Source: an uncultured Collinsella sp. | Lineage (GTDB): Bacteria; Actinomycetota; Coriobacteriia; Coriobacteriales; Coriobacteriaceae | DNA length: 64,000 nt | Assembly (NCBI GenBank): GCA_937923795.1 | Contig: CALDWI010000002.1 | Location: 11,406-75,405 of the forward strand | Direction: 5' to 3' | Part shown: positions 21,650-50,668 of the stretch, one piece after another | How the letters are laid out: each line of letters begins with the position of its first letter | How positions within the stretch are numbered: position 1 is the first letter of the stretch | Made by a program: the position numbers and the translations under genes | Notes under the pieces: generated by a model | What the model was told of the DNA's origin: nothing | What the model saw: the letters and a program-made list of their open reading frames with translations, nothing else | Database searches by the model: none

Positions 21650-21676
21650 GCTGCCCGCAACATCAAGTTGCTAGTA

Positions 21677-21711
21677 AAGGCCCGGATGCCAAGGCACCCG
21701 GGCCTTTTTCT
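21677..21711 (+). terminator. Rho-independent terminator after rplX
   Basis: aaggcccgg-atgccaaggcac-ccgggcctt followed by tttt. Confidence 0.8.
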
Positions 21712-21730
21712 ATCCCTACTCATTGGGGAC

Positions 21731-21905
21731 AGACTTAAATGAGTAGTCGTTGGGGACGTTCTTAAACGGCTAGTTGATGGGGACAGTCTTTAGATTTGTT
21801 TATCTGGTCATCTGGGATAGGCTTCAACGAAAGCGGCACATAGGGACTGTCTCTAGGTGCCGGCACATAGGGACGTTCCCTTTTTGCCGGCAGTTTGGGA
21901 CGGTC
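21731..21905. repeat. Iteron-like array: about 7 degenerate tandem units (~27 bp period) with core T(G)GGGAC-N4-5-CTT
   Basis: Cores read at about 21735, 21752, 21779, 21814, 21844, 21870 and 21897. Several units are bracketed by short inverted repeats (ctactca/tgagtag, ggcac/gtgcc). Confidence 0.6.
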
Positions 21906-21995
21906 CTTTGATGTCTGATGCCCTCAGAGGGGTGGAGTATCACGGCCTACTCTGTTCTTTAGGGCTTTGGTGTTCCGCCTCTTTATGCTTCACAA

Positions 21996-22140
21996 GGATC
22001 GTCGCATGCGCATTTATGCGCATAGTTTTGCCCGACAATGCGCATAACTGCGCAAACATCTGCCAACTATGGCTAAATAATGACCGACAAGCAAATAAAT
22101 ACGCAAACACGAGCAGATACGCGCGCAATTGTGCGAATAT
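21996..22140. promoter_or_regulatory. AT-rich promoter region with 5-6 copies of a TGCGCA(T/A)A motif upstream of the oxidoreductase gene
   Basis: gcatgcgcatttatgcgcata, aatgcgcataactgcgcaaac, atacgcaaac, atacgcgcgcaattgtgcgaata. Confidence 0.35.
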
Positions 22141-22186
22141 AGGGTTGTTAGAAATGAAGGACTTCCGATGACTTAGGAGGCACATC

Positions 22187-23266
22187 ATGGCAGATTCCAA
22201 ACAGGCTCCGCTCGACGCCGAAGCAGCCGCTAAGGCGGCATTCGCCTCGGTCCAGGATCAGCCGTTCCCCGACGATATTTTTACGGCTCCCGAGCTTCGT
22301 TGGACTGTGATCGGGTGCGGCGTTATCGCCAACCAGATGGCCCAGTCTCTCGCTCTTGCCGGCCGCAAGCTTGCGGGCGTTGCCAACCGCACTCTGTCCA
22401 AGGCTCAAGCTTTTGCAGAGCAGTATGGCGTTGAGAAGGTCTATGAAACGGTCGAGGACCTCTACGCCGATCCGAACATTGACGCGGTCTATATCACCAC
22501 GCCGCACAACACGCATATCACCTACCTGCGCGCCGCTCTGTCAGCTGGCAAGCACGTGCTTTGCGAGAAGGCCATTACCCTCAACTCCGCCGAGCTCGAC
22601 GAGGCGCGAGCCATTGCCGACGAGCACAACGTGGTCCTCATGGACGCCACTACGGTGCTCCACATGCCCTTGTATCAGGAGCTGCACCGCCGCATGGATG
22701 CCGGCGAGTTTGGCCACATGAACCTTGCTCAGCTCAACTTTGGTAGCTATAAGGAGTACGGCGATCTGACCAATCGCTTCTACAACCGTAGTCTCGCCGG
22801 CGGCGCCATGCTCGACATTGGCGTGTATGCCCTGTCTGTCATGCGCCTGTTTATGGCCAGCCAACCCGCTGAGGTTGTCTCGCTGGGCAACACCTGTGAG
22901 ACCGGCGTTGACGTCGCGAGTGGCATTGTCTGCCGTAACGCCGAGCAGCAGCTGGGCGTGGTGAGTCTTACGCTCCACTCCAAGCAGCCCAAGCGTTCGG
23001 TTATCAGCTTCGACAAGTGCTATATCGAGGTCAACGAGTATCCGCGCGCCGACCATGCGACCATCGTGTGGACTGCGGACGGTCGCCGTGAGGAGGTCCA
23101 CGCTGGCACCGAGGCATACGCTCTGTGCTACGAGATGGCCGACCTGGAGAAGGCCGTTGCCGGCGATGATTTGAAGTGCGAGCTTCTGGGCTATGCTTCT
23201 GATGTTATGGAGCTGATGACCAAGCTTCGCGCCGACTGGGGAGTTGTGTACCCCGAGGAGGAGTAA
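22187..23266 (+). CDS. Gfo/Idh/MocA family NAD(P)-dependent oxidoreductase
   Basis: N-terminal Rossmann RWTVIGCGVIAN and the signature HVLCEKAITL (EKP-like motif). AGGAGG RBS. Confidence 0.85.
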   Translation: MADSKQAPLDAEAAAKAAFASVQDQPFPDDIFTAPELRWTVIGCGVIANQMAQSLALAGRKLAGVANRTLSKAQAFAEQYGVEKVYETVEDLYADPNIDAVYITTPHNTHITYLRAALSAGKHVLCEKAITLNSAELDEARAIADEHNVVLMDATTVLHMPLYQELHRRMDAGEFGHMNLAQLNFGSYKEYGDLTNRFYNRSLAGGAMLDIGVYALSVMRLFMASQPAEVVSLGNTCETGVDVASGIVCRNAEQQLGVVSLTLHSKQPKRSVISFDKCYIEVNEYPRADHATIVWTADGRREEVHAGTEAYALCYEMADLEKAVAGDDLKCELLGYASDVMELMTKLRADWGVVYPEEE

Positions 23267-23269
23267 GCG

Positions 23270-24016: not shown

Positions 24017-24030
24017 CAGCGAGACAAGGC

Positions 24031-29340: not shown

Positions 29341-30735
29341 ATGACCCAGGAGACGGTTACGAACGGCACTGAAGCCCTGTTCACTCGCGAAGGCATGCCT
29401 CCCGTTAAGGAAATGATCCCGTGTGCCCTTCAGCACGTACTGGCATCGTTTGCCGGCATCATTACCCCGGCGGTCATCATGGCCGGCGTCTACGGCTTTA
29501 ATAGCCAGCAGAGCACCGACATCATCCAGGTCGCGCTCATTCTTTCGGCAATCGACACGGCCCTTCAGGCCTTCGCTCCCTTCCGTCGCATCGGCGGCGG
29601 CCTGCCCATCGTCATGGGCGTTTCGTTCGCGTTCCTGCCGGCCCTGCAGGCCATGGGTGCCTCGGGCTTTAGCTTTGGTGCGCTGCTGGGCGGCGAGATC
29701 GTCGGCGGCGCCGTCGCGGTCCTCTTTGGTCTGGCCTACAGCAAGATCAAGTGGCTGTTCCCGCCCGTCGTGACCGGTACGGTCATCTTCTCCATCGGCG
29801 TTTCGCTGTATCCCACGGCCGTCAAGTATATGGCCGGCGGTATGGGTACGCCGCTGTGGGGTACCCCGCAGGCCTGGTGCGTCGCTCTTATCACCTTCGC
29901 CGTGGTCTTTGCGCTCGCCAACTTTGGCAAGGGTACGCTCAAGCTGGGATCTGTGTTCTTTGGCATGATCGTTGGCATGATCGTCTCCATCCCCTTTGGT
30001 ATGATCGACTTCTCCAGCGTCGCCACCGCTCAGGTCTTCGCCCTTCCCAAGCTCATGCCCTACGCGCTCGAGTTTGATCCCGAGGTCTGCATTACCCTCG
30101 CCGTCGTGTTCCCCATGGTTGCCATCCAGGTTATCGGTGACGTCTCCGCCGCCTGCCTGGGCTCCATCGACCGTATGCCCACCGAGCGCGAACTCTCCGG
30201 CGCTATCGTGTCCCAGGGCCTCACCTCTATGGTCGGCGGCCTGCTGGGCGGTCTTCCCACCAGCGCCCTTGGCCAGAACGTGGGCATCATCTGCTCCAAC
30301 AAGGTCGTCAACAAGTGGGTCTTTGTGATCATCGCGGCCGTCTTTGCCATTGCCGGTCTGTTCCCGCAGCTCTCTGCCGTCCTTTCCGCTATCCCGCAGC
30401 CCGTCATCGGCGGCGCGACCGTCGGCGTCTTTGGCACCATCACCATGAACGGCGTGCGCATGTTCACCCGCGAGGGCCTCACGCAGCGCACTACCACCAT
30501 CGTCGGCACCTCCGTCGTCTTTGGCCTGGGTATCTGGATGGCCAGTGGTTGCCTTGCCGGCGAGGGTATGCCCGCCTGGGTGTCCACCGTCATCGGCTCC
30601 AATGCCGTAACCCCCACCGCCATCATGGCCATTGTCCTTAACCTGATCCTTCCGCAGACGCCGGTCGTGGCTCAGCACATCGATGCTGCCAAGGACGCTG
30701 CCGTGGATCTGGTCTTGCCCGAGAGCAAGAAGTAA
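29341..30735 (+). CDS. Nucleobase:cation symporter-2 (NCS2) family purine (xanthine/uric acid type) permease
   Basis: 464 aa polytopic protein with an NCS2-like GDVSAA/QGL..M.GGLLGGLPTS..GQNVG region. Confidence 0.85.
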   Translation: MTQETVTNGTEALFTREGMPPVKEMIPCALQHVLASFAGIITPAVIMAGVYGFNSQQSTDIIQVALILSAIDTALQAFAPFRRIGGGLPIVMGVSFAFLPALQAMGASGFSFGALLGGEIVGGAVAVLFGLAYSKIKWLFPPVVTGTVIFSIGVSLYPTAVKYMAGGMGTPLWGTPQAWCVALITFAVVFALANFGKGTLKLGSVFFGMIVGMIVSIPFGMIDFSSVATAQVFALPKLMPYALEFDPEVCITLAVVFPMVAIQVIGDVSAACLGSIDRMPTERELSGAIVSQGLTSMVGGLLGGLPTSALGQNVGIICSNKVVNKWVFVIIAAVFAIAGLFPQLSAVLSAIPQPVIGGATVGVFGTITMNGVRMFTREGLTQRTTTIVGTSVVFGLGIWMASGCLAGEGMPAWVSTVIGSNAVTPTAIMAIVLNLILPQTPVVAQHIDAAKDAAVDLVLPESKK

Positions 30736-30930
30736 CCAATTCGGTGCTATTCGTCGGCGGACGCATCGCCTCGTCCGCCGACGCCATGCGGCACCAAGCC
30801 GCACTTCAAAGGGTTTGTCCCTTTGGTGAAGCGTTGACGGGAGAGGGCCCGTTTCCGGTGTAGGCCGGCGCTTCGCACTCCGCCATGTCAGAGGTGTCAA
30901 ACCCCGCCTCTGATGTTGAAGGGAGCATCC

Positions 30931-32286
30931 ATGCTTCTGGTCGCTAACGGTTCCGTCTTTACCCGCAACGCTCAGACCCCGTTTATTCCAAACGGTGCGG
31001 TCGCCATTGACGGAGATACGATCGTCGAAGTGGGCCCCGAGCGCGAGCTCAAGGCCAAGTACCCGGATGCCGAGTACGTCGATGCCCAGGGCAACCTCAT
31101 CATGCCCGGACTCATCAACTGCCACACCCACATCTACTCGGGTCTGGCCCGCGGCCTTGCCATTAAGGGCTGCAACCCCACCAACTTCTTGGAGAATCTC
31201 GAGCAGCAGTGGTGGAAGATCGACGACAACCTGACGCTCGACGGCACCAAGGCCAGCGCCTATGCTACGATTTTGGACTCCATCCGTGATGGCGTCACCA
31301 CGATCTTCGATCACCATGCGAGCTTCTGCGAGATTCCGGGAAGCCTCTTTACCATTAAGGATGCAGCTCAGGAGCTGGGCATGCGTTCGTGCCTGTGCTA
31401 CGAGGTCTCCGATCGCCGCGGCCAGGAAAAGTGCGACCAGGCCATTGCCGAGAACGCCGAATTTGCCCAGTGGGCCGCCAAGGAGCGTCGCGATAACGAC
31501 AACCACATGATCGCCGCCATGTTTGGCGGACATGCTACCTTTACGCTTTCGGACGAGACCATGGATAAGATGGCCGAGGCCAACAACGGCCTGACCGGCT
31601 TCCACATCCATGTGTGCGAGGGCATGAACGACGTGTGGGACTCCCGCCTCAACCGCGGTGGCATCAGCCCCGTCGAGCGCCTGCTGCAGCACAACCTGCT
31701 GGGTCCCGACACCATGCTGGGCCACTGCATCCACGTGACGCCTGCCGAGATGGATATCGTCAAGGAGTCCGGCACTTGGCTCGTCAACAACCCCGAATCC
31801 AATATGGGCAACGCCGTGGGCTGCGCCCCCGTGCTCGAGTTCTTCCGCCGCGGCATCCCCGTGTGCATGGGCACCGACGCCTACACCCACGATATGCTCG
31901 AGAGCCTTAAGGTCTTCCTGATTATTCAGCGCCACAACGCCGCCATGCCCAACGTGGGCTGGTGCGAGGCCATGACGATGCTGTTCGAGAACAACGCCAA
32001 GATGGCGAGCAAGTACTTCGATCGCAAGCTCGGTGTGCTCGAGGCCGGCGCTGCCGCCGACGTTATCGTTATGGACTACAAGCCCTTTACGCCGCTGAGC
32101 GAGGAGAATATCGACGGCCACATGCTCTTTGGCATGATGGGCAAAAACTGCCGCACCACCATCATCAACGGCCGCGTCCTGTACAAGGATCGCGAGTTCG
32201 TTGGCATTGATGAGGACAAGATCAACGCGTGGACCATGGCCGAGTCCAAGAAGCTCTGGAGCACGCTCAACGATCGCACCTACTAA
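30931..32286 (+). CDS. ssnA: SsnA-type aminohydrolase (amidohydrolase superfamily)
   Basis: Colinear with recalled E. coli SsnA: MPGLINCHTHIYSGLARG, IFDHHAS, HIHVCEG, LGHCIH, LVNNPESNMGN, GTDA. GAAGGGA RBS before the ATG at 30931. Confidence 0.85.
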   Translation: MLLVANGSVFTRNAQTPFIPNGAVAIDGDTIVEVGPERELKAKYPDAEYVDAQGNLIMPGLINCHTHIYSGLARGLAIKGCNPTNFLENLEQQWWKIDDNLTLDGTKASAYATILDSIRDGVTTIFDHHASFCEIPGSLFTIKDAAQELGMRSCLCYEVSDRRGQEKCDQAIAENAEFAQWAAKERRDNDNHMIAAMFGGHATFTLSDETMDKMAEANNGLTGFHIHVCEGMNDVWDSRLNRGGISPVERLLQHNLLGPDTMLGHCIHVTPAEMDIVKESGTWLVNNPESNMGNAVGCAPVLEFFRRGIPVCMGTDAYTHDMLESLKVFLIIQRHNAAMPNVGWCEAMTMLFENNAKMASKYFDRKLGVLEAGAAADVIVMDYKPFTPLSEENIDGHMLFGMMGKNCRTTIINGRVLYKDREFVGIDEDKINAWTMAESKKLWSTLNDRTY

Positions 32287-32300
32287 TTCACAAGTAGATT

Positions 32301-32336
32301 CGCGCGCGTCGGATGTTTCGCCACATCCGACGCGCG
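32301..32336 (+). other. 15-bp GC-rich hairpin between ssnA and ygfK with no U-tract
   Basis: gcgcgcgtcggatgt-ttcgcc-acatccgacgcgcgc. Confidence 0.6.
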
Positions 32337-32435
32337 CATAGGCGGCCTCCGCGGGGTCGCCGGCGCTGTGCTAGCGCTACACCGTATTTGCGCCCGCCGC
32401 GCGGTCTCGCCGGGCGTTACAGAGAGGAACTCATT

Positions 32436-35435: not shown

Positions 35436-35446
35436 GCGAGTCTCTT

Positions 35447-35926: not shown

Positions 35927-35938
35927 AAGGGAATCACC

Positions 35939-39290: not shown

Positions 39291-40280
39291 CTACTCATCG
39301 TCTCCGTCGTTGGGGTCGCCCTTGAGGGTGTTGATGTCCAGGTACTGGTTATCGTCCTCTTTTTGCTGGGTCTCCGACTCCGCTTGGGTGGGGCCGCGGA
39401 ACAGCTGGAATCCCTCAAATGCAATGACACCGAGCAGGGCAATGATAATGGCGATAAAGGCAACCTTGACTGCCTGCGGAAATTCCGAGAAACGCAGTGC
39501 CTTTTCCTCGGCGTAATAATCGGCGAAGCGCTCTTCGCCCGTGCTTTTGGTATACGCCGGCGCGGACGCGGCCTCCGGGTCATATTCCGGTGCGGGCGTG
39601 GCAGCGTACGGATCGTTGGGATAATCGCTCGACGCGGTGCCATAGTCCTCGGTCTCGATGCGACTGTTGCCAGCATAGCCATCGGAATAATCGGAATATG
39701 CCGTACCGCCCTCATAGTCTGCGGCGCTCGTGTTGGCGGCAAAAAGCGGGTTAACTGGAACGTCGAGCGCCGGCATGCCGGTAGAGGTCTCATCCAGATC
39801 GGTTGCAGCCCAGGAATCGTAGGCAACCTGATGGGCAACGGGCTCATCGAGCCTTGCGACCGGAGGCTTGCGTGCCGCAGGAACAGGCAACTGCTGGGCG
39901 CTGTACATAACAGTGCTGTCGGCCGATTTGCCCTGCGTCGCTGCTGCGAGAAATGCCGCCGTCTCGGATGGGTCACTTGCGGGGCGGGGAGCGGGCGTGG
40001 GCGCCGAAGTGGGTGCGGGTGTAGGCGCGGGCGTCGAAACAGCCGACTGCGCAGGAGTCGGCGCAGATGCGGTCTTAGGCGCAAGTGCGGGATTGGGGCT
40101 TGACGGGCGAGCCGCGCCGCCGCCCATGAGTTCGTCGGCGGTCCACGGGCGATCATCCATCACATCGTCAAGGCTCAGCGAAAACAGGTCGTCTTCACCC
40201 TCATCGAACATGCGGTGCACATGTCCACCAATTGCCGGAATCAATCCGCGACCGGTGCATGATGCCTTGCTCAACGCCAT
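39291..40280 (-). CDS. Hypothetical Pro/Ala/Thr-rich protein with a single C-terminal transmembrane helix and an acidic tail
   Basis: Codon usage is like neighbouring genes, and an AAAGGA RBS precedes the ATG at 40280. Low-complexity PAPTPAPTSAPTPAP region, TM segment VKVAFIAIIIALLGVIAF, and no recognisable domain. Confidence 0.6.
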   Translation of the reverse strand: MALSKASCTGRGLIPAIGGHVHRMFDEGEDDLFSLSLDDVMDDRPWTADELMGGGAARPSSPNPALAPKTASAPTPAQSAVSTPAPTPAPTSAPTPAPRPASDPSETAAFLAAATQGKSADSTVMYSAQQLPVPAARKPPVARLDEPVAHQVAYDSWAATDLDETSTGMPALDVPVNPLFAANTSAADYEGGTAYSDYSDGYAGNSRIETEDYGTASSDYPNDPYAATPAPEYDPEAASAPAYTKSTGEERFADYYAEEKALRFSEFPQAVKVAFIAIIIALLGVIAFEGFQLFRGPTQAESETQQKEDDNQYLDINTLKGDPNDGDDE

Positions 40281-40403
40281 TCTGTTCCATCCTTTCGAAA
40301 TACTAATGACATCGATTATATGGAACTTCCCAAGTGGCTCGGTCTTGGATTCGTGCTTTCCAGAACTCGCGCCCAAAAGGGGAGGGGCAATCCAGGCGAG
40401 CGC

Positions 40404-41057
40404 CTACTTGTCGCCGGCCGCCGCCTTGGCCTCATTGAGGTAGCTATAAAAACTGTACTTGGAGATGCCAAAGAACTCGCAGGCGCGCTCGCTCGACTTG
40501 GAAATGAGGAAGGCGCCGCGACGGTCGAGGTAGCCAATGGCACGAATGCGCTCGTCTTTGGTCATGAGTGCCGCGGGCTTGCCCACAAACTGCTCGCACT
40601 CGTGCAGCAGGTCCTCGAGCAGGTCGCCGATGTTCTTGGTAATGGGCTCGGGCTCGGTATAGCCCGTGCCGCCGGTGCCGGTAAAGGCGTCGAGCGAACG
40701 CTCAAAAGCCTTCATGAGCGTAATGTCAAAGTTAATGCCCAAAATGCCGACGGGCTTGCCTTCGTCGTTGCGGATAAAGATCGTCGACGATTTGAGCAGC
40801 TTGCCATCGGTGGTTTTGGTGAGGTATGGCTCGCGGTCGTGCACGTCGGTGGTGCCCTCGTGCATGGACTCAAACACGATATGGCTGGGGCCGTCACCCA
40901 GTTTGCGCCCGCTGACGTGGCCGTTTTCGATCACTACGATGGAGTGGTCCACGTCCTCGGTTTCCAGATCGTGGACGACGACTTCGCAGTTGGGGCCAAA
41001 TTGGAGCGCCAGGCCGTGTGCTAGGCGCTTGTAAAACTCAATCTGTGCGGGGGTCAT
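40404..41057 (-). CDS. YheO-like PAS domain plus HTH transcriptional regulator (copy 2)
   Basis: LALQFGPNCEVVVHDLETEDVDHSIVVIENGHVSGRKLG and C-terminal FFGISKYSFYSYL. Start chosen at the ATG at 41057. Confidence 0.75.
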   Translation of the reverse strand: MTPAQIEFYKRLAHGLALQFGPNCEVVVHDLETEDVDHSIVVIENGHVSGRKLGDGPSHIVFESMHEGTTDVHDREPYLTKTTDGKLLKSSTIFIRNDEGKPVGILGINFDITLMKAFERSLDAFTGTGGTGYTEPEPITKNIGDLLEDLLHECEQFVGKPAALMTKDERIRAIGYLDRRGAFLISKSSERACEFFGISKYSFYSYLNEAKAAAGDK

Positions 41058-41195
41058 GGGTGCCTTCCTAAAAATTAGTTTGGGCACACTTTGCCATAAA
41101 CCACACTTGACCGCAAACAAATCCATCAACAAGGCAATTCATGACCGTTCGGCGGCGAAAAAGTACCGATTACGGCAACAAACAATTCGTTAGGT

Positions 41196-41248
41196 ATGCC
41201 AATCAAAAAGTGTGATAGAACATTACTAACAAACTTTTTGTTTGGCAT
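41196..41248. promoter_or_regulatory. 16-bp inverted repeat (15/16) in the regulator/ygeX divergent promoter region; candidate operator
   Basis: atgccaatcaaaaagt (41196-41211) versus actttttgtttggcat (41233-41248), 21-bp spacer, AT-rich context. Confidence 0.4.
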
Positions 41249-41334
41249 CCACATAAAAGTTCAGCCGTGTGAATGGGATCGGGCTGAAACGCGTATGCGG
41301 GGGCCGGCAAGAGAGGACTTAAGGAGTTCACCGT

Positions 41335-42549
41335 ATGGCCGATAAGATCCAGTGGGCGGGCAACACGATGCCCAAGAGCGATGACAAGCACTTGGGAATC
41401 ATGAGCCTCGACCACGTGAAGAAGGCCCGTGCCTTCCACCAGTCGTTCCCTCAATATACCGTCACTCCGCTTGCCCGTCTGGACGGTCAGGCTGCGCGCC
41501 TGGGCCTGTCCAACCTGTGCGTTAAGGACGAGAGCTATCGCTTTGGCCTCAACGCCTTTAAGGTTCTGGGCGGCTCGTTTGCCATGGCCAACTACATTGC
41601 CGATGAGACCGGCAAGGACGTTGCCGACTGCACCTTCGATTACCTGACTTCCGATCAGCTTGCCAAGGACTTTGGCCAGGCCACCTTCTTTACCGCCACC
41701 GACGGCAACCATGGCCGCGGCGTGGCATGGGCTGCCAACAAGCTGGGTCAGAAGGCCGTCGTGCACATGCCCAAGGGTTCCACCAAGCCCCGCTTCGACA
41801 ACATCGCCGCTGAGGGCGCCACGGTGACCATCGAAGAGGTCAACTACGACGAGTGCGTGCGCATGGCCGCCGCCGAGGCCGACGCCTGCGAGCGCGGCGT
41901 CATCGTTCAGGACACCGCCTGGGAGGGCTACGAGAAGATCCCGTCTTGGATTATGGAGGGCTACGGCACCATGGCTTCCGAGGCTGCCGAGCAGCTGCGC
42001 GAGATGGCCATCAACCGCCCGACGCACGTCTTTGTCCAGGCCGGTGTAGGCTCGCTCGCCGGCGCCGTGGTGGGCTACTTCACCAACCTGTATCCCGATA
42101 ACCCGCCCACCTTCGTCGTGGTTGAGTGCGCGCCTGCCGCCTGCCTGTACAAGGGCGCTGCCGCCGGCGACGGTGACCCGCGCATCGTGGACGGCGACAT
42201 GCCCTCCATCATGGCCGGTCTGTGCTGCGGTGAGCCCAACATCCTGGGCTGGGATATCCTGCGCAACCACGCCACCGCCTTCGTGTCCTGCCCCGACTGG
42301 GTCACCGCTCGCGGCATGCGCACCCTGGGCGCTCCCGAGAAGGGCGACCCGCGCGTCATCTCCGGCGAGTCCGGCGCTGTGACCACCGGTCTGGTCGAGA
42401 CTCTCATGCTCGATCCCGAGTACGCCGAGCTCAAGGAACTCATCGGCCTGGACAAGACGAGCTCCGTGCTCTGCTTCTCCACCGAGGGCGATACGGATCC
42501 CGACCAGTATCGCCGCATTGTTTGGGAAGGCGAATATCCCACTTGCTAA
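41335..42549 (+). CDS. ygeX: Diaminopropionate ammonia-lyase (PLP-dependent)
   Basis: FHQSFPQYTVTPL...LCVKDESYRFGLNAFKVLGG (PLP-lysine region) ...ATDGNHGRGVAW. AAGGAG RBS. Confidence 0.88.
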   Translation: MADKIQWAGNTMPKSDDKHLGIMSLDHVKKARAFHQSFPQYTVTPLARLDGQAARLGLSNLCVKDESYRFGLNAFKVLGGSFAMANYIADETGKDVADCTFDYLTSDQLAKDFGQATFFTATDGNHGRGVAWAANKLGQKAVVHMPKGSTKPRFDNIAAEGATVTIEEVNYDECVRMAAAEADACERGVIVQDTAWEGYEKIPSWIMEGYGTMASEAAEQLREMAINRPTHVFVQAGVGSLAGAVVGYFTNLYPDNPPTFVVVECAPAACLYKGAAAGDGDPRIVDGDMPSIMAGLCCGEPNILGWDILRNHATAFVSCPDWVTARGMRTLGAPEKGDPRVISGESGAVTTGLVETLMLDPEYAELKELIGLDKTSSVLCFSTEGDTDPDQYRRIVWEGEYPTC

Positions 42550-42623
42550 TCGTTGGGGCGGAGTAAATAGGTATCGCTCCGCCACCTCAAAGGTAGATTC
42601 CTTCGTTTGAAAGGTTATGAACA

Positions 42624-44009
42624 ATGGCTAAAGAACTCGATTTCGACGCTATCAAGGCTGCTGCTGAGTCTCATCGTGCTGATATGACTCGCTTCCTGCG
42701 CGCTATGATCTCCCATCCCTCTGAGTCCTGCGAGGAGGGTGAGGTTGTTGCTTGCATCAAGGCCGAGATGGAGAACCTTGGCTATGACGAGGTCAAGGTC
42801 GACGGCCTGGGCAACGTTATGGGCTTTATGGGCGAGGGCGACAAGATCATCGCCATCGACTCCCACATCGACACCGTCGGCATCGGCAACATCGAGAACT
42901 GGGATGCCGATCCCTACGAGGGCTACGAGACCGATGAGATCATCTACGGCCGCGGCGGCTCCGACCAGGAGGGCGGCATGGCTTCTGCTACCTACGCTGC
43001 CAAGATGATGAAGGACATGGGCCTCATCCCCGAGGGCTACAAGATCATGGTCGTCGGCACCGTCCAGGAAGAGGACTGCGACGGCATGTGCTGGCAGTAC
43101 ATCTACAACAAGGACGGCATTAAGCCCGAGTTCGTCATTTCCACCGAGCCCACCGACGGCGGCATCTACCGCGGTCACCGCGGCCGCATGGAGATCCGCG
43201 TCGACGTTCACGGCACCTCCTGCCACGGCTCCGCTCCCGACCGCGGCGACAACGCCATCTACAAGATGGCCGACATCATCGCCGACGTCCGCGCCCTCAA
43301 CAACAACGGCTGCGACGAGTCGACCGACATCAAGGGTCTCGTCAAGATGCTCGACCCCAAGTACAATCCCGAGCACTTCGAGGATGCCCGCTTCCTGGGC
43401 CGCGGCACCTGCACCGTCAGCCAGATCTTCTACACCAGCCCCAGCCGTTGCGCCGTGGCCGACTCCTGCGCCATCTCCATCGACCGTCGCATGACCGCCG
43501 GTGAAACCTGGGAGTCCTGCCTGGACGAGATCCGCAACCTGCCGGCTGCCAAGAAGTACGGCGACGACGTGAAGGTCTCCATGTACATGTACGACCGTCC
43601 GTCCTGGACCGGCGAGGTCTACGAGACCGAGGCTTACTTCCCCACGTGGATCAACAAGGAGACCGCTCCGCACGTCAAGGCTCTCGTCGACGCCCACAAG
43701 GCCATGTTCGGTGACGAGCGCATCGGCTGCGAGCCCAGCATGGACAAGCGCACCGGTCGCCCGCTGTGCGACAAGTGGACCTTTTCCACGAACTGCGTTT
43801 CCATCCAGGGCCGCTACGGCATCCCCTGCGTGGGCTTTGGCCCGGGTGCCGAGTCTCAGGCTCACGCTCCCAACGAGGTCACCTACAAGGACGACCTGGT
43901 CACCGCTGCTGCCATGTACGTGGCTGCCCTGAACCTCTACGATCCGAGCAAGGCCGATGGCGACGCCACCGTGTTCCGCGCCGGTCTGACCAACAACAAG
44001 ATTGATTAG
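42624..44009 (+). CDS. ygeY: YgeY-family M20 metallohydrolase (selenium metabolism-linked hydrolase family)
   Basis: M20 motifs [24 protein letters not shown] and HGSAP. Sits next to ygeX and ygeW as in E. coli. Confidence 0.85.
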
Positions 44010-44210
44010 TCCCATTCCTCGATTTTGTTGAGCCGGGGGCTGCTCGTGTCCCCGGCACCCCCGGTTGACTTGGGGCCCGCGGTCGTTATCTCCCATGCTT
44101 CCTCAACGGTGGCGGGTCCTCGTCATGGTGCTCTGCATGTTCTAGCCACACGCGCATGCCGGAGCACATCTACTCATTGCGATCGTTTCATCTTTAGAAA
44201 GGACATTTCC

Positions 44211-45413
44211 ATGGACGCTAAGTTTACCGAGCTCGTCGAGCAGCTGAACGGCCTCGATTTTAAGGGTATGTACGGCAGCGACTTCCTGCACACCTGGGAC
44301 AAGACTACCGATGAGCTCAAGGCTCTCTACATCGTCGCCGACGCCCTGCGCGAGCTGCGCGAGAACAACGTCTCGTCCAAGATCTTCGACTCGGGTCTGG
44401 CCGTCTCCCTGTTCCGCGACAACTCCACCCGTACGCGCTTCTCCTTCTCTAAGGCCGCCAACCTGCTCGGCCTTGAGCTGCAGGACCTGGACGAGAAGAA
44501 GTCCCAGATCGCTCACGGCGAGACCGTCCGCGAGACCGCTACCATGATCTCCTTCATGGCCGACGTCATCGGCATCCGCGACGACATGTACATCGGCAAG
44601 GGCGACGCCTACATGGCCGAGGTCTCCGAGTCTGTCCAGCAGGCTTACGAGGACGGCGTTCTGGATCACCGTCCCACGCTCATCTCCCTGCAGTCCGACT
44701 CCGATCACCCCACGCAGTCCTCTGCCGACATGCTCTACCTCATCAACGAGTTTGGCGGCCTCGAGAACCTCAAGGGCAAGAAGGTTGCCGTCACCTGGGC
44801 CTATTCGCCCTCTTACGGCAAGCCGCTGTCCTGCCCGCAGTCGCTGATCAGCCTGCTGCCCCGCTTTGGCATGGACGTCACCCTGGCTCACCCCGAGGGC
44901 TACGACCTCATGCCCGAGGTCGTTGAGCGCGCCAAGGGCTATGCCGCCGAGTCCGGCACCACCTTTAAGCAGGTCAACACCATGGCCGAGGCCTTCGAGG
45001 GCGCCGACATCGTAATCCCCAAGAGCTGGGCTCCGTTTGCCGCCATGGAGAAGCGTACCAACCTGTACGCCGAGGGCGACGACGCCGGCATCGCTGCGCT
45101 CGAGAAGGAGCTGCTCGCCCAGAACGCCACCCATCAGGACTGGTGCTCCACGACCGCGCTCATGGAGAAGACTGCCAACGGCCAGGACACCATCTTTATG
45201 CACCCGCTGCCCGCCGACATCTCCGGTGTCTCCTGCGAGCACGGCGAGGTCAACGCCGACGTCTTCGACATGCACCGCGTGGGCATGTACAAGGAGGCCA
45301 GCTACAAGCCGTACGCCATCGCAGCCATGATGTTCCTGCAGAAGGTTGCCGATCCCGCCGCTGCCCTCAAGGCCCTCGACGAGCGCAACGCTGCCCGTTG
45401 GTTCCAAGCCTAA
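44211..45413 (+). CDS. ygeW: YgeW-family (knotted) carbamoyltransferase
   Basis: FRDNSTRTRFSF carbamoyl-phosphate STRTR motif, HPLP motif (FMHPLPAD), ~400 aa. Start moved to the ATG at 44211. Confidence 0.87.
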   Translation: MDAKFTELVEQLNGLDFKGMYGSDFLHTWDKTTDELKALYIVADALRELRENNVSSKIFDSGLAVSLFRDNSTRTRFSFSKAANLLGLELQDLDEKKSQIAHGETVRETATMISFMADVIGIRDDMYIGKGDAYMAEVSESVQQAYEDGVLDHRPTLISLQSDSDHPTQSSADMLYLINEFGGLENLKGKKVAVTWAYSPSYGKPLSCPQSLISLLPRFGMDVTLAHPEGYDLMPEVVERAKGYAAESGTTFKQVNTMAEAFEGADIVIPKSWAPFAAMEKRTNLYAEGDDAGIAALEKELLAQNATHQDWCSTTALMEKTANGQDTIFMHPLPADISGVSCEHGEVNADVFDMHRVGMYKEASYKPYAIAAMMFLQKVADPAAALKALDERNAARWFQA

Positions 45414-45436
45414 AGCTGGGCTGAGGTAAGCCATGT

Positions 45437-45475
45437 AAAGGGGGCGCTCTGCCAACCGGCGGGGTGCCCCTTTTT
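45437..45475 (+). terminator. Probable intrinsic terminator after ygeW
   Basis: aaaggggc...gcccctttt stem ending in a ttttt run. Confidence 0.45.
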
Positions 45476-45562
45476 GCATCGCGGGCGTGCGGGATAAGCG
45501 TTTTCGATGTGGATGCCCGCGGCGCGAGTTATGGGTACGATGGTTTCAGGGGAGGTATCACC

Positions 45563-46177
45563 ATGAAACTTGGTTGCGTCATTATGGCCTCGGGCGAGGG
45601 CAAGCGGTTTGGCTCTAACAAGATGCTTGCCGATATCTATGGCGAGCCGCTAATTGCCCGGACCATCGATTCGGTTCCCCGGGGCTTTGACGTCGTGGTT
45701 TCGACGCGTTGGCCCGAGGTCGCCCAGATTTGCGAGGACAAGCATTGCCCGTGCGTGCTGCACGATGGCGAGCTGCGCAGCGAAAGCGTCCGTGCGGGCC
45801 TTTCGTGGGGAGTCGAACGCAACTGGAAAGGTTGCCTCTTTTTGCCGGGCGACCAGCCGCTCGTGAGTTCGGATTCTTTTGAGGCTATGGTTCGTGCATT
45901 TGACGAGCGTGGCCGCAAGCATCCGGTGCGTCTTGCGTGCAACGGTGAGCCTTCGAGCCCGGTGCTCTTTCCGGCGGAACTGTTCGATGCGCTTATGTGT
46001 CTTGAGGGCAAGGACGGCGGCGGTTCGATCCTCAAGGACCGTACCGACGTGGTGCTGGTCGAGGCGCGTGCCTACGAGCTGTGGGACGTCGATACCGCCA
46101 AGGGACAGCGACGCATAGCGGAGCATATCGCCGCCTGCTCGTATTTTGATCGCGTGGCCAACTGCATCAATCAATAA
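45563..46177 (+). CDS. ygfJ: MobA-like NTP transferase (YgfJ/MocA-type molybdenum cofactor nucleotidyltransferase)
   Basis: VIMASGEGKRFG..NK nucleotide-binding N-terminus and LPGDQPLV motif. GGGGAGG RBS before the ATG at 45563. Confidence 0.75.
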   Translation: MKLGCVIMASGEGKRFGSNKMLADIYGEPLIARTIDSVPRGFDVVVSTRWPEVAQICEDKHCPCVLHDGELRSESVRAGLSWGVERNWKGCLFLPGDQPLVSSDSFEAMVRAFDERGRKHPVRLACNGEPSSPVLFPAELFDALMCLEGKDGGGSILKDRTDVVLVEARAYELWDVDTAKGQRRIAEHIAACSYFDRVANCINQ

Positions 46178-46186
46178 GGAGCAATT

Positions 46187-47554
46187 ATGATCATCATCAA
46201 AAACGGCGCGCTCGTGACGCCACAGGGGCTTCGCCGCGCCGATCTTGCCATGGATGGCGATAAGATCGTGCGGATCGCCGCGGCGATTGAGCCGGCTGAG
46301 GGCGATACCGTCGAGGATGCCGCGGGCTGCTGGGTGTTTCCCGGCTTCATCGACGGCCACACGCACATGCAGTGCTGGACCGGCATGGATTGGACGGCCG
46401 ATAGCTTTGAGACCGGCACGCGCGCGGCCGCCTGCGGCGGCACGACGACCATCGTGGACTACGCGACGGCCGATCGCGGCGTGACCATGCCCGATGCCTT
46501 GGCCGAGTGGCATCACCGCGCCGACGGAACCTGCACGGCCAACTACGCCTTTCATATGGCACTCGCCGAGTGGAACGAGCGCAACCGCGCCGATCTCTCG
46601 GCCATGCGCGAGGCGGGCGTGTCGTCGTTCAAGACCTACTTTGCCTACGATCATTTGCGCCTGGACGATGCCGAGACGCTCGAGGTGCTCGAGGAGCTCA
46701 AGTTTATTGGCGGCATACTGTGCGTGCATTGCGAGAACGGCACGCTGGTGAATGAGCTGCAGAAGCGCGTGTTTGAGCAGGGTATCCACGGGCCCGAGGG
46801 CCATGCGCTCAGCCGTCCGGATGTGTGCGAGGCCGAGGCAGTGAGCCGTCTGCTATATCTGGCGCACCTGGCCGGCGACGCACCGGTCAACGTGGTGCAC
46901 CTTTCGACCAAGCTGGGGCTCGAGGCCATCCGTGCCGCCAAGGCGCGCGGGCAGAAGAATATCTATGTCGAGACCTGCCCTCAGTATCTGATGCTCGACG
47001 ATACTTGCTACTTGGAGCAGGGCGAGGACGGCTTTGCGGGTGCCAAATATGTGATGAGCCCGCCGCTGCGCCATGCCGGCGACCGTGCGGCACTGCGCGA
47101 GGCACTTGTGGCAGGCGAGATCGATACGATTGCGACCGACCACTGCAGCTTTAACCTACACGGGCAAAAGGACCGCGGACGCGACGACTTCCGCGCGATT
47201 CCCAACGGCGGGCCCGGTGTGGAGCATCGCCCCGTCGCGATCGCTACGAGCTTTGAGGGACAGCTGGGCCCCGAGGATCTGTGCCGCTTGATGAGCGAGA
47301 ACCCGGCGCGCGTCTTTGGCATGTATCCGCGCAAGGGATGTCTTGCCGAGGGCTCCGATGCCGATGTGTGCGTGTGGGATCCCAAGGCGCGCTGGACCAT
47401 TAGCGCTGCGACGCAGCATCAGGCTGTGGACTACACGCCGCTCGAGGGCTTTGAGGCACATGGCCGCGCCAAGGCCGTCTTCGTCAACGGCGTGCTGGCC
47501 GCGTGCGACGGCGAGCCCACCGGAGCCCAACCCGGCCGCTACGTCCCCCGCTAA
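46187..47554 (+). CDS. hyuA: D-hydantoinase/dihydropyrimidinase-type cyclic amidohydrolase
   Basis: PGFIDGHTHM metal-binding HxH motif, SFKTYFAY (carboxylated Lys region), VHCENG, ATDHCSF. Confidence 0.87.
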   Translation: MIIIKNGALVTPQGLRRADLAMDGDKIVRIAAAIEPAEGDTVEDAAGCWVFPGFIDGHTHMQCWTGMDWTADSFETGTRAAACGGTTTIVDYATADRGVTMPDALAEWHHRADGTCTANYAFHMALAEWNERNRADLSAMREAGVSSFKTYFAYDHLRLDDAETLEVLEELKFIGGILCVHCENGTLVNELQKRVFEQGIHGPEGHALSRPDVCEAEAVSRLLYLAHLAGDAPVNVVHLSTKLGLEAIRAAKARGQKNIYVETCPQYLMLDDTCYLEQGEDGFAGAKYVMSPPLRHAGDRAALREALVAGEIDTIATDHCSFNLHGQKDRGRDDFRAIPNGGPGVEHRPVAIATSFEGQLGPEDLCRLMSENPARVFGMYPRKGCLAEGSDADVCVWDPKARWTISAATQHQAVDYTPLEGFEAHGRAKAVFVNGVLAACDGEPTGAQPGRYVPR

Positions 47555-47580
47555 CAAGAAGGGCGCCGGATTCCCTTCGC

Positions 47581-47647
47581 AGTTGCGGTGAAATAGTTCC
47601 TGTTTAGCCGCCAAATAGGCCGTTTCAGGAACTATTCCACCGCAACT
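47581..47647. repeat. Palindromic element, copy 1 (22-bp stem, 1 mismatch), between the convergent hyuA and yqeC
   Basis: agttgcggtgaaatagttcctg - 23 nt loop containing gccgccaaa - caggaactattccaccgcaact. Confidence 0.8.
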
Positions 47648-47672
47648 TATAGGTCTGCTGGGGCAGCGCCGG

Positions 47673-48407
47673 CTATTTGAGGCTGGTGGCGACGATGGGG
47701 CGGCTGAGGGCAGTCTCAAAGCGGCCTGCCACGGCCGGGTCGGCAAGCGTGTCGACTTGGTTGAGCATAATGCGGGCATTGTTGAGGTTCAGCATCCGCA
47801 GTTCGGCATTGAGCACCATGGCGACGCGCTCGGGCGTGGCGATATCGGTGAGCTCGCAGCCGCAACGCTCGCAAAAGAGCTCGGGGCGGTGGACGGCTTC
47901 GTTGATGGGCTTGCCGAGCCCCGAGGCGCCGACGATCCAGACGATGTTGGCCGTGCCAGAGGGAATCACCGGCTCCCAGGCGGCGTGGGCCTTGAGCGGG
48001 AGCCGCTTGCTGCCATCTGCCTCGGCCAGGACGTAGTCAAAGCGCTGCGCCAGCTGGTCGAGCGGTTCGGCAGGGGAGGAGAGCTTGCCCGTCTCGGGGT
48101 CCAAGACGCCTGCTTGGCAGATGCTTCCGCGGCTCATGCCCGCGCATGCCTCGCAGGTGCAGCCTGGGGCGTGCAAGGCACCTGGCTTCCAGGGCGCGGC
48201 GTCCAGACGACGGCTCGACCCGTCCCATGGCACGCCGGCGACGGGAAACATGTGCGTGGTGGTACAGAGAAGCACCCTGCCGCCGGCGCGCATGAGCTCG
48301 AGACCCAGCGTCTTGAGCAACGTCGACTTGCCACCGCTGCCGATGATCGCGGTAATGCCCGGCTCAATCTTGAGCGTGGAGGCAAGGCTGCCGTTAACCG
48401 TTTCCAT
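47673..48407 (-). CDS. yqeC: YqeC-family selenium-dependent hydroxylase accessory protein (P-loop)
   Basis: ITAIIGSGGKSTLL Walker A directly after the N-terminus, ~240 aa, located beside yqeB/xdhC. Confidence 0.78.
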   Translation of the reverse strand: METVNGSLASTLKIEPGITAIIGSGGKSTLLKTLGLELMRAGGRVLLCTTTHMFPVAGVPWDGSSRRLDAAPWKPGALHAPGCTCEACAGMSRGSICQAGVLDPETGKLSSPAEPLDQLAQRFDYVLAEADGSKRLPLKAHAAWEPVIPSGTANIVWIVGASGLGKPINEAVHRPELFCERCGCELTDIATPERVAMVLNAELRMLNLNNARIMLNQVDTLADPAVAGRFETALSRPIVATSLK

Positions 48408-48509
48408 CTGTTCACCGCCGTATAATACTGTGATAATAAATAATCATCAGAGTAGCGGTCGAACCGCTTTTGCTCTGCTCAAACCGTAGCACAGGGAGGT
48501 GCCCCGGGA

Positions 48510-49304
48510 ATGCTCGTTTATGTTCGCGGCGCCGGCGATATCGCCACGGGCGTGGCTGCTCGTCTGGTGCGCGCCGGCGTGTCGGTTGTCATGGCCGATA
48601 TCGCGGTCCCCACGTGCATCCGTCGCACAATCAGTTTTTGCGAGGCCATTCGCCTGGGCGAGGTCCAGGTCGAGGGCATTCGTGCCCGCTTGGCGCAGAC
48701 GCCGGTCGAGGTGCTTGAGATTACCGAGGCGGGGGATGTCGCCGTGGTGGTGGACCCCCAGGCACAGATGCTCGGCGAACTTAGACCCGCGGCCGTGGTA
48801 GACGCGATTCTAGCTAAGCGCAATTTGGGCACCACGCGCGACATGGCTCCTGCCGTCATCGCGGTAGGGCCGGGCTTTACCGCTCCGGTTGATTGCGATG
48901 CCGTGGTCGAGACTATGCGCGGGCATTTTTTGGGCCGCGTCATTACCCAGGGCTCGCCCCAGCCCAACACGGGCGTGCCGGGCATGATCGGCGGATACGG
49001 CAAGGAGCGTGTTATCCACAGCCCCGCCGCCGGCGTGTTTAGGTCCGACCGCGCGATCGGCGACATCGTGAGTGCCGGCGATGTGATCGGGTATGCGGGT
49101 GATACTCCCATGGTCACGCAGATTGACGGCTGCTTGCGCGGCCTTTTGGCCGACGGCGTTCAGGTGACCGAGGGCTTTAAGTGCGCCGACGTCGACCCGC
49201 GCGGCGATGCCAGCTATATCAACTATATTTCGGACAAGGCGACATCGGTCGGCGGCGGCGTACTCGAGGCGCTCGCCATGCTCACCGGTGTATTCCAGGG
49301 ATAG
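48510..49304 (+). CDS. yqeB: YqeB-family selenium-dependent molybdenum hydroxylase system protein
   Basis: MLVYVRGAGDIATGVAARL N-terminal Rossmann-like motif, ~260 aa, adjacent to xdhC. Family assignment is from memory of the TIGRFAM description. Confidence 0.7.
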   Translation: MLVYVRGAGDIATGVAARLVRAGVSVVMADIAVPTCIRRTISFCEAIRLGEVQVEGIRARLAQTPVEVLEITEAGDVAVVVDPQAQMLGELRPAAVVDAILAKRNLGTTRDMAPAVIAVGPGFTAPVDCDAVVETMRGHFLGRVITQGSPQPNTGVPGMIGGYGKERVIHSPAAGVFRSDRAIGDIVSAGDVIGYAGDTPMVTQIDGCLRGLLADGVQVTEGFKCADVDPRGDASYINYISDKATSVGGGVLEALAMLTGVFQG

Positions 49305-49313
49305 GAAATTGCA

Positions 49314-50357
49314 ATGGAAAAGCTCGATGTGGTGAATGCTGCGCTTGGCGCTCTGAAGGCTGGTAAGACGTGCGAGCTGGTGGTAGTTGCCGGTACGGCA
49401 GGGTCATCGCCGCGCGGCGTGGGCGCCTGGATGGCCGTCTTTGCCGATGGCAGCCAAGCGGGCACCATCGGCGGCGGCAAGATTGAGCTCTTTGCGCTGG
49501 ACGAGGCGCGCGAGCTGCTGGCCGCAGGGCAATCGCGTCTGGTCCGCTACACCATGGGCGGCGAGAACTCCGATACTGGCATGATCTGCGGCGGAGCCAT
49601 CTGCCTGTGCTATCTGCACCTGGATGTATCGCAGGTGCCGTTGTTCCAGTCGGTTGCCGACGTTTTGGCCTATCGGCGCATCGGCGACTTCGTCATCGAC
49701 TTTGAACCGTTTGTCATTCAGGCCCTGGAGGGCGATGTGGTCGAGTACCATGGCGAGGCATCGCGCCGCACCATTGCGGGCTGCCCCGGGCTTTCGCTGG
49801 TGGAGGAGGGGAGTAAGGTTACCTACACCAACGCGGCCTCCGAGATTCCCGCGGCGCACGTCGAGACGCTCTGCCCCGAGGGCCTGACCTATATCTTTGG
49901 CTGCGGCCACGTGGGCGCCGCGACGGCGCGGGTGCTCACGGCGGCGGGCTTTGCCGTCGTGGCGTGCGACGACCGCCCCGGCACGTTGACGCCCGAATGG
50001 GTGCCCGGTGTCTACGATCGTCGCCTGGTCGATTACAAGAACCTGAGCGAGCCGTGTCCCATCGGTCCGCGCGACTTGGTGGTCGTCGCCACGGCGGGTC
50101 ACAAGTCCGATATCGACGTGGTGATTCAGGCCATGCGTGCCAAGCCTGCCTACCTGGGCTGTCTGGGTTCGCGCCGCAAGACGGCCTTTGTGCGCGCCCG
50201 CCTGGAGCAGGAGGGCTTTACGCAGGACCAGATCGACGAGCTGCACCTTCCGATCGGCGTTGCCATCGAGGCCGAGGACCCCGAGGAGATCGCCATCTCC
50301 ATCGCCGCCGAGATGATCCACCTGCGCCGCACCAAACTCGTCCCCCGCAAGCGCTAA
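49314..50357 (+). CDS. xdhC: XdhC/CoxI family molybdenum hydroxylase maturation factor
   Basis: N-terminal XdhC_CoxI domain (GSSPRGVGAWMAVFADGSQAGTIGGG) and C-terminal Rossmann (IFGCGHVGAA). Confidence 0.85.
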   Translation: MEKLDVVNAALGALKAGKTCELVVVAGTAGSSPRGVGAWMAVFADGSQAGTIGGGKIELFALDEARELLAAGQSRLVRYTMGGENSDTGMICGGAICLCYLHLDVSQVPLFQSVADVLAYRRIGDFVIDFEPFVIQALEGDVVEYHGEASRRTIAGCPGLSLVEEGSKVTYTNAASEIPAAHVETLCPEGLTYIFGCGHVGAATARVLTAAGFAVVACDDRPGTLTPEWVPGVYDRRLVDYKNLSEPCPIGPRDLVVVATAGHKSDIDVVIQAMRAKPAYLGCLGSRRKTAFVRARLEQEGFTQDQIDELHLPIGVAIEAEDPEEIAISIAAEMIHLRRTKLVPRKR

Positions 50358-50375
50358 TCGCATCCCCACCAATAA

Positions 50376-50448
50376 GTTGCGGTGAAATACGGATTGTTTA
50401 AGCCTGTTAGGCCGCCAAACAGTCCCTATTTTACCGCAACAGCTTTTT
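50376..50448 (+). terminator. Palindromic element, copy 2, followed by TTTTT; terminator of xdhC
   Basis: gttgcggtgaaatacggattgttt - loop containing gccgcc - aaacagtccctattttaccgcaac, then agcttttt. Shares AGTTGCGGTGAAATA and gccgccaaa with copy 1. Confidence 0.7.
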
Positions 50449-50502
50449 GGGACCCATTTGTGCGGGGGAGTTGTGGAGTTGTGCAGGCAGACGAGGTTTT
50501 TC

Positions 50503-50531
50503 TGGAAATACACTCCCGATGCGCGTATAGT
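50503..50531 (+). promoter_or_regulatory. Candidate sigma-70-type promoter for rplE and downstream genes
   Basis: TGGAAA (50503-50508), 17-nt spacer, TATAGT (50526-50531), about 140 nt upstream of rplE. Confidence 0.35.
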
Positions 50532-50668
50532 ACCGATTGTTTTGTCGGCTCCTGCTGTGTCGAGTCCAAACCGCAAAATGCCATGAGCGGCGCGGATGCA
50601 GCCAGGAGGCACGAGGACAACCCATCGTGGCCACGCCCCGTGCTTAAAACCCCAAGAAGGAGTGAACA

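Follow-up and report, generated by a model that had tools for sequence, protein, structure and literature searches.

The spc ribosomal operon of Collinsella aerofaciens is anciently cut between rplX and rplE, 5' of a candidate ribosomal-protein leader RNA

The S10-spc-alpha gene order is treated as a near-universal constant of bacterial genomes. Actinobacteria tolerate non-ribosomal genes inside the S10/spc cluster; in Mycobacterium tuberculosis they interrupt the rpsQ-rplN and rplO-secY junctions, which are other junctions than the present one, and rplX and rplE are not known to be separated there. A published study of ribosomal-cluster insertions, in which Actinobacteria are not covered (0 mentions), described inserted non-ribosomal genes, flanks later fully disconnected in some descendants and transposable elements as proposed facilitators, its detailed events being those between operons (rpoBC-str, str-S10, rplL-rsmC) and of few genes. 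Here we analyzed a stretch of 64,000 nt from an uncultured Collinsella sp. (assembly GCA_937923795.1, contig CALDWI010000002.1, positions 11,406 to 75,405; the window), which resembles those cases in these respects and differs in that the cut lies inside the spc operon, between rplX and rplE, recurs across the order Coriobacteriales and takes in as much as about 51 kb. Events in which genes enter the ribosomal supercluster are of a known kind; this variant is new, as is a candidate ribosomal-protein (r-protein) leader RNA directly before rplE. The nearest described control element is the S8 site of E. coli, which is placed where rplX meets rplE, has rplN-rplX 5' of it and governs rplE together with its coupled genes (Fu et al. 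2013, PMC3616713). Almost the whole of that site falls within the L5 coding sequence, and it is confined to Gammaproteobacteria (PMC3616713).

Genes of the window were called with third-position G+C content (GC3) as a guide and then assigned with Pfam and NCBIfam. On the plus strand, rplN (20962-21330, Pfam Ribosomal_L14) and rplX (21344-21649, Pfam ribosomal_L24/KOW) are the final ribosomal genes of the upstream transcription unit (rplC...rpsQ-rplN-rplX), whose order is identical in all relatives, and rplE (50669-51226, plus strand, Pfam) begins only at 50669, as a first-pass annotation of this DNA had also read it. The interval from rplX to rplE measures 29,019 nt and contains, besides one IS3 fragment, 21 intact non-ribosomal genes distributed over both strands, close to the figure of about 22 genes given before. 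An intrinsic terminator is predicted after rplX (21676..21711, plus strand; hairpin 21676-21707 and U-run, with a 15-bp G+C-rich stem); hairpin and U-run fold at -25.4 kcal/mol (z = -4.7, equalled by 0/200 shuffles) and are near-identical across other strains, so that the earlier statement that rplN-rplX end at 21649 before a strong terminator stands. At the far side, a palindrome resembling repetitive extragenic palindromes (REP-like) follows xdhC (50365..50456, plus strand; palindrome 50365-50451, 35-nt arms, 77% complementary, then CTTTTT); it had been described as terminator-like and is probably a terminator or an insulator. The two ribosomal gene blocks are separated by a terminator, by genes on the opposite strand and by this second, terminator-like palindrome, and no locus of the window, of Collinsella or of Enorma has rplN, rplX and rplE adjacent and co-directional. 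The ribosomal cluster of C. aerofaciens is physically cut at this point, and anciently so; operon fission, one of two possibilities raised at first, is what the split junctions in all Collinsella and Enorma loci bear out. Downstream, rplE is followed on the plus strand by rpsN (51307-51492, read from the sequence), rpsH (51611-52009, Pfam) and rplF (52043-52579, Pfam) in a ribosomal block that extends over 50669..60393 (Pfam; gene calls with Pfam on identical loci), in which the remaining spc and alpha genes after rplF keep the canonical order.

The age of the cut is seen in the relatives. C. stercoris/intestinalis-type lineages, including polished long-read chromosomes, have a gap of 4.6-5.3 kb that reads rplX-GFO-(DeoR)-(RluA)-U32(-)-rplE, and Enorma, a neighbouring genus, has rplX-RidA-RluA(-)-U32(-)-aminotransferase-M19 dipeptidase-rplE. 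YebC, Asp23 and a MetNIQ-type transporter precede rplE in C. tanakaei, and further lineages carry WXG100-type genes or ispF-cysS after U32. A minus-strand U32 gene lies between rplX and rplE in all compact Collinsella states and in Enorma, and the older core (GFO, DeoR, RluA, U32, RidA) is common to other Collinsella species and in part to Enorma. Since relatives without the uric-acid cluster of the window are already split and share this core, the cut predates the divergence of Collinsella and Enorma. In Collinsella genomes where both junctions were seen, the later cargo, including the uric-acid cluster, sits between U32 and rplE. U32, with RluA and RidA, is the shared core of the interval and the uric-acid cluster a later, lineage-specific addition between U32 and rplE, the interval being a composite assembled stepwise. 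We consider it likely that the cut is ancient, that the rplE block has its own promoter and a leader older than the cut, that cargo entered in steps and that feedback control acting at rplE would have made the separation tolerable.

Deeper outgroups were found by searching for RplX among 50% representatives and by a second homolog search; 90% clusters of RplN, RpsH and RpsS contained Collinsella and Enorma only. A low-GC relative (L139) has the canonical rplN-rplX-110 nt-rplE; Thermophilibacter has a 475-nt rplX-rplE spacer with two large terminator-like hairpins and no cargo; a metagenome-assembled genome (MAG) of Atopobiaceae has a terminator and one 436-aa gene without assigned identity before rplE; and in a Coriobacteriales MAG rplX is followed by a terminator and, beyond it, by FctA/SpaA pilus genes. 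Terminators follow rplX in all split lineages, with an equivalent hairpin and U-run in Enorma, the Atopobiaceae MAG and the Coriobacteriales MAG; those of L141 and L143 were missed by a simple terminator scanner because their A-tracts pair with the U-run, and direct folding was used instead. With such variation among Coriobacteriales, the junction represents neither an island inserted once nor a gene order fixed throughout the class; the latter had been offered as an alternative, and the synteny comparison, with states from intact to more than 50 kb within one order, speaks against it. An abundant human gut genus and its order thus break the supposed constant at one recurrent site, a natural experiment on the constraints that hold the ribosomal cluster together. 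Two apparent RplE outgroups, P0001 (74%) and P0016 (88%), were artefactual, with an internal duplication or a frameshift, and their contexts were not used. In the C. stercoris-type lineage (L105, 5028-5172), a near-perfect hairpin of about 120 nt replaces the simple rplX terminator (-95.7 kcal/mol, z = -9.4).

The number of breaks is a separate matter. We hold the chances to be about even that the junction was broken independently many times in Coriobacteriales, each lineage acquiring its own terminator-promoter architecture instead of inheriting an ancestral one: the cargo of Atopobiaceae (the gene without assigned identity, the pilus genes) is unrelated to that of Coriobacteriaceae (the U32 core), and one lineage is intact. 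The common U32, RluA and RidA genes argue, however, for one event within Collinsella and Enorma, and the hairpins and cargo-free 475-nt spacer of Thermophilibacter fit a precursor state or a relic alike. Repeated breakage is compatible with an ancient cut before an older leader at the level of the order and differs from it only in the number of events.

A promoter is predicted before rplE at 50503..50531 on the plus strand (-35-like TGGAAA, 17-nt spacer, -10 TATAGT), at the place where a -35/-10-like pair had been noticed earlier. The TATAGT box is kept in all Collinsella lineages and Enorma whatever gene lies upstream, and roughly 150 nt before rplE are likewise conserved in every one of these lineages, irrespective of the upstream gene, in the order TATAGT, CGGCUCCUG, a hairpin with a GCCA loop, CAGGAGGCACGAGG, CCCCGUGCUUAAAACCCC, the Shine-Dalgarno (SD) sequence and AUG. 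A covariance model (R1), built from Collinsella and Enorma only, describes this region with covariation as a structured leader of about 137 nt with three helices (50532..50668, plus strand): P1 (50549-50558 pairing with 50598-50608; CUCCUG/CAGGAG plus an extension), P2, a long hairpin with the GCCA loop (50564-50574 with 50587-50597), and P3 (50609-50616 with 50636-50643; GGCACG-A-GG/CC-C-CGUGC, with a conserved A-C mismatch), followed by a UUAAAACCCC tail and the SD sequence AAGGAG at 50657-50662. Each lineage has the same fold, though several have entirely different stem sequences; one lineage shows a double change in P1 (CUCCUA/UAGGAG), and in both Atopobiaceae sequences (the MAG and Thermophilibacter) an A-U pair of P3 has become G-C, while the A-C mismatch and the loop motifs are invariant as the stems change. 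Model R1 has one match in the window and, immediately before rplE, further matches in the outgroups: the Atopobiaceae MAG (E = 2e-10), the intact operon of L139 (6e-7) and Thermophilibacter (2e-6). Changes on both sides of a pair occur in 16/25 pairs, against 7.7 +/- 1.3 in shuffles (0/500) and 1-5 in slid controls, pairing cells on the model-based alignment amount to 93% against 82.5% in shuffles, and covariation is present in all three helices. The apical part of P3 accommodates extra sequence of 15, 30 or about 110 nt. A RNAalifold consensus on five MAFFT-aligned leaders was poor (covariation term +1.56), because MAFFT mis-registers the P2 arms, and was replaced by realignment to the covariance model. 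The insertion of about 110 nt in the apical loop of P3 is itself structured (L120, L121, L128, L129, L134, L136); it could be an RNA domain gained by the leader or else a mobile element of small size.

The leader resembles described r-leader candidates (PMC7247131; Rfam), having conserved, covarying structure immediately 5' of an r-protein gene and occurring in one lineage. Rfam 15 has no match at E <= 10 in 50300-51700 and none at gathering thresholds in the whole window, and the catalogue of Eckert and Weinberg 2020 (PMC7247131) lists no rplE or spc leader for Coriobacteria, only L31-Coriobacteria. We consequently put the element forward, on sequence evidence, as a previously uncatalogued candidate r-protein leader RNA with good covariation, whose ligand is directly testable. 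It has the same operon position as the E. coli S8 operator and abuts the SD sequence of rplE. Unlike that operator, which is a hairpin over the rplE start and coding region with the conserved S8 internal loop, it consists of three helices, ends before AUG and has no recognisable similarity to it in sequence. As the E. coli operator is inside the L5 coding region, the relation is one of positional analogy and not of homology. A comparison by eye with the S8 site of 16S rRNA and with 5S rRNA gave no convincing likeness, and we make no claim on it. Since the element is found inside the 110-nt rplX-rplE spacer of L139, where the operon is intact, the leader is ancestral and older than the cut, and in every lineage sampled the inserted DNA lies 5' of it. 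The first-pass annotation had supposed that rplE through rplQ would need a new promoter and leader; a predicted promoter and a leader of their own are there, but the leader, being present in the outgroups, is not new.

These observations give a history of the gap. In Collinsella and Enorma a small core (U32, with RluA, RidA and GFO/DeoR in some lineages) occupied it first. In C. aerofaciens, the stretch between U32 and the rplE promoter then received the uric-acid cluster with its regulators, as well as a permease and IS3 copies. By analogy, the leader could mediate translational feedback on the rplE unit, one of whose products would bind to it; the position of the E. coli operator makes S8 a candidate ligand, and L5 and others would also be possible. 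The uncoupling of rplX from rplE might have been tolerated because control sat immediately 5' of rplE, and the junction would then have become a neutral site at which cargo could land, with IS3 elements assisting. The evidence suggests a testable rule, under which the cluster accepts inserted genes only on the 5' side of an internal regulatory RNA that is already in place. We advance more tentatively, and with some doubt, the wider proposal that the leader is an order-wide autoregulatory spc leader that makes interruption of rplX|rplE selectively neutral, that a second leader before rplC (see below) perhaps does likewise for rpsJ|rplC and that both junctions are recurrent landing pads; if so, the niche-adaptive cargo landing inside the ribosomal supercluster comprises uric-acid catabolism, pili, WXG100/type-VII-like genes and sugar phosphotransferase systems (PTS).

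Several points weigh against the explanation that we favor. Support for the leader structure comes from covariation in an alignment fitted to the model, the folding energy of the full leader is no better than that of shuffled sequences (z = 0.15), and P3 has a single covarying pair only. Termination after rplX and initiation at TATAGT are predictions. The assignment of L139 to Coriobacteriales depends solely on gene order and on the closest named relatives of its RplX (Atopobiaceae, Coriobacteriales). In C. tanakaei and L149 the two halves were not seen on one stretch, and a rearrangement, not a local insertion, could separate them. Sampling was confined to Coriobacteriales, which limits what can be said on the age of the cut and the number of insertions.

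The element upstream of rplE might instead be a promoter with a stabilising or processing 5' untranslated region (UTR) that exerts no protein feedback, the break having been tolerated as a promoter happened to arise. The unremarkable folding energy agrees with a plain UTR, and the invariant blocks could serve as sites for an RNase, for ribosome stand-by or for a transcription factor. We nevertheless regard this as unlikely, if worth keeping in view: the element is conserved across the order, including in the intact operon of L139, where a promoter is not needed; there is covariation in three helices, with the A-C mismatch and loop motifs unchanged amid changing stems; and its position directly against the SD sequence, like the whole picture, is typical of r-protein leaders.

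The other possibility raised at first was the insertion of one island of about 29 kb. Such a single, recent horizontal transfer of a catabolic island into an intact C. aerofaciens spc operon would fit the patchy distribution of the uric-acid cluster in gut bacteria and in Collinsella, the IS3 fragment inside the interval and the full IS3 copies in the interval of other strains. We consider it very improbable. Relatives without the cluster are split at the identical point and have core genes in common, the left 7 kb being shared with such lineages, and the uric-acid cluster was added later. The interval is not present or absent as one block, and its content differs piecewise (core; core and uric-acid cluster; other cargo). 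When the GC3 and tetranucleotide comparison suggested at the outset was run, the composition was host-like and indistinguishable from that of flanking genes, which lends no support to a foreign origin: GC3 is 0.78-0.84 in the interval and 0.72-0.78 in the flanks, synonymous-codon usage correlates at 0.93-0.96 with flanking non-ribosomal genes, and in tetranucleotides (TETRA) the interval correlates with the flank as well as it does with itself. No tRNA, integrase or flanking direct repeats were found at the interval by a scan of the window and among the Pfam and NCBIfam hits.

Looked up by exact sequence, the proteins of the window carry the name C. aerofaciens, and exact RplE and RplX proteins were found in tens of thousands of assemblies. 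In all ten RplE contexts among the matches listed, from independent assemblies, rplE is preceded by the end of the uric-acid cluster, never by rplX, and all ten RplX contexts listed have non-ribosomal genes downstream, many of them on contigs of 1-2.5 Mb. Upstream of rplE, rplX was present in 0/80 GTDB species-representative Collinsella genomes, all with an RplE 100% identical and from the finely split C. aerofaciens complex, a set that informs on fixation and not on phylogenetic depth, and in none of about 40 other assemblies. Mapping of the window proteins placed xdhC, sometimes with a second permease, upstream of rplE in 69 of the 80; the remaining 11 had no xdhC match and mostly a contig end within 600 nt of rplE. 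An assembly or binning chimera, which the first-pass annotation had kept as an alternative, is practically negligible, for although about 10 MAG contigs stop 100-580 nt upstream of rplE, as if assemblers struggled there, the two junctions are found again in numerous independent contigs of megabase size, some of them polished long-read contigs, and in the complete chromosome NZ_AP031421.1, and the contig breaks are explained by strain variation at the junction (xdhC or a second permease upstream of rplE).

The contigs that stop there (L027, L044, L053, L055, L070, L071, L078, L079, L087, L094) make the rplE junction a seemingly systematic assembly break-point, presumably because strains within one sample differ at it, and such breaks matter for binning and for marker-gene workflows that use the ribosomal block. 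By same-contig coordinates, the interval measures 29.0 kb in the window and 40.4, 43.5 and 51.4 kb in other strains. Individual strains also show an extra PTS gene between DeoR and RluA, full IS3 copies between RidA and YheO (strains L014 and L019), a mannose-PTS/GH172 block immediately 3' of rplX, a second permease beside rplE and a deletion from ygeX to hyuA.

The cargo of the window begins with the older core, namely a GFO/IDH/MocA-type oxidoreductase (22187-23266, plus strand) and a DeoR regulator (23270-24016, plus strand), and then its most widely shared part, a RluA-family pseudouridine synthase (24359-25018, minus strand) and a U32/DUF3656 protein of 831 aa (25034-27529, minus strand), whose best NCBIfam matches, both below cut-off, are the tRNA hydroxylase TrhP and UbiU (RNA and quinone hydroxylase relatives). 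A RidA-family deaminase (27755-28207, plus strand) and a YheO-type PAS_6/HTH_22 regulator (28332-29129, minus strand) come next, all six being assigned by Pfam and NCBIfam. The uric-acid or 2,8-dioxopurine cluster follows in two parts. Part A (29341..38716, plus strand) holds a PbuX-type permease, SsnA, YgfK, a 4Fe-4S ferredoxin and a selenium-dependent xanthine dehydrogenase (XDH), and part B (40404..50357, both strands, NCBIfam) holds a second YheO-type regulator (minus strand), YgeX, YgeY, YgeW, a MocA-like cytidylyltransferase, the hydantoinase HyuA, YqeC (minus strand), YqeB and XdhC. SsnA, YgfK, Se_dep_XDH, YgeX, YgeY, YgeW, D-hydantoinase, YqeB and YqeC score above NCBIfam curated cut-offs, and all seven gene types of the uric-acid pathway are present at that level. 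Most of the interval is catabolic, as the first reading of it had proposed.

This gene set resembles the C. sporogenes cluster and the E. coli ygeW-ygfK cluster (Se-dependent XDH, YgfK, SsnA, HyuA, YgeW, YgeY, YgeX, PbuX, YqeB, YqeC). Carbamate kinase is absent, which matches reports for C. aerofaciens, and unlike the known clusters this one is flanked or split by two YheO-type regulators. The chemistry is now described as the 2,8-dioxopurine pathway (10.1101/2025.04.24.650524). Previous work found the core genes of the cluster among the most uric-acid-induced in C. aerofaciens ATCC 25986, and uric-acid use variable within Collinsella and the cluster patchy in gut bacteria (10.1101/2022.07.24.501321); the location between rplX and rplE is not mentioned in that paper, where "ribosomal" occurs only in the methods. 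A medically relevant cluster sits here in a strain-variable hot spot, which may explain the uneven use of uric acid within Collinsella.

Between the two halves of the cluster lies the IS3 scar, a C-terminal transposase fragment on the minus strand (39030..39179, within an ORF at 38763-39233; NCBIfam transpos_IS3). Residues 19-68 of the ORF align to profile positions 286-335 of 369 (E = 8.5e-12), in agreement with the scar reported before, and the motif SPDNAAMEGFFGLLKRE is readable in it. About 50 C-terminal residues remain of what in a complete IS3 would be orfA/orfB and terminal inverted repeats, and Pfam rve has no match at the remnant. An intact plus-strand IS3 at 38784-40103 was considered and rejected, as it has no Pfam match and the remnant is truncated and on the minus strand. 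The scar is adjoined by an ORF for a 361-aa Ala/Pro-rich protein with a C-terminal hydrophobic segment (39291..40376, minus strand), of lower GC3 (0.65) and with no Pfam or NCBIfam match.

At the left edge, seven hairpin-forming units of 27 nt with a GGGAC core (21716-21914, no strand assigned) form a strain-variable minisatellite. The array had been seen before and called iteron-like; we reject that name because the copy number ranges from 1 to 7 among C. aerofaciens strains. An AT-richer stretch at 22003-22140, just upstream of the GFO-DeoR pair, has repeated or palindromic ATGCGCA(N)TGCGCA motifs, and these TGCGCA-type repeats are plausible DeoR operator sites. The palindrome after xdhC is called REP-like because it recurs at 47580-47648 (type AAGTTGCGGTGAAATA...TATTTCACCGCAACTT). 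In other Collinsella lineages, a related AAGTTGCGGT motif precedes the -10 box of rplE.

The same supercluster has a second break in the window, where rpsJ (1612-1920) is about 14 kb away from rplC (15861). The genes between them are fatty-acid-synthesis-like genes, an acetyl-CoA carboxylase (ACC) carboxyltransferase, a PTS EIIC-like gene, a cation diffusion facilitator (CDF) transporter and a histidine phosphatase. When the window (1612-15861) was compared with L012, L139, L141-L143 and L149, one strain had only the CDF and histidine phosphatase genes between rpsJ and rplC, two outgroups had them adjacent and others had unrelated genes before rplC. Directly upstream of rplC (about 15790-15860), all lineages have GUGGUCC(U/G)CU(G/A)GGG, a variable hairpin, UCCCA(U/A)GACCAC and an SD sequence, whether or not rpsJ adjoins. 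The element has the look of another structured leader, with a hot spot for insertions on its 5' side. Rfam gave only sub-threshold miRNA-model matches on 15400-15900; these lie on both strands and are spurious, because of a long perfect hairpin at 15437-15601. This hairpin, located between rplC and the gene for the histidine phosphatase, is a perfect inverted repeat of 49 nt whose arms are 67 nt apart; it may be an element resembling miniature inverted-repeat transposable elements (MITE-like) or a very strong terminator.

RplX itself ends in a zinc-ribbon-like CxxC...CxxC motif (CPECG...CKKCG); other representatives are without these cysteines, and the cysteine form is also found in the relatives and in some distant representatives, e.g. 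Synergistaceae.

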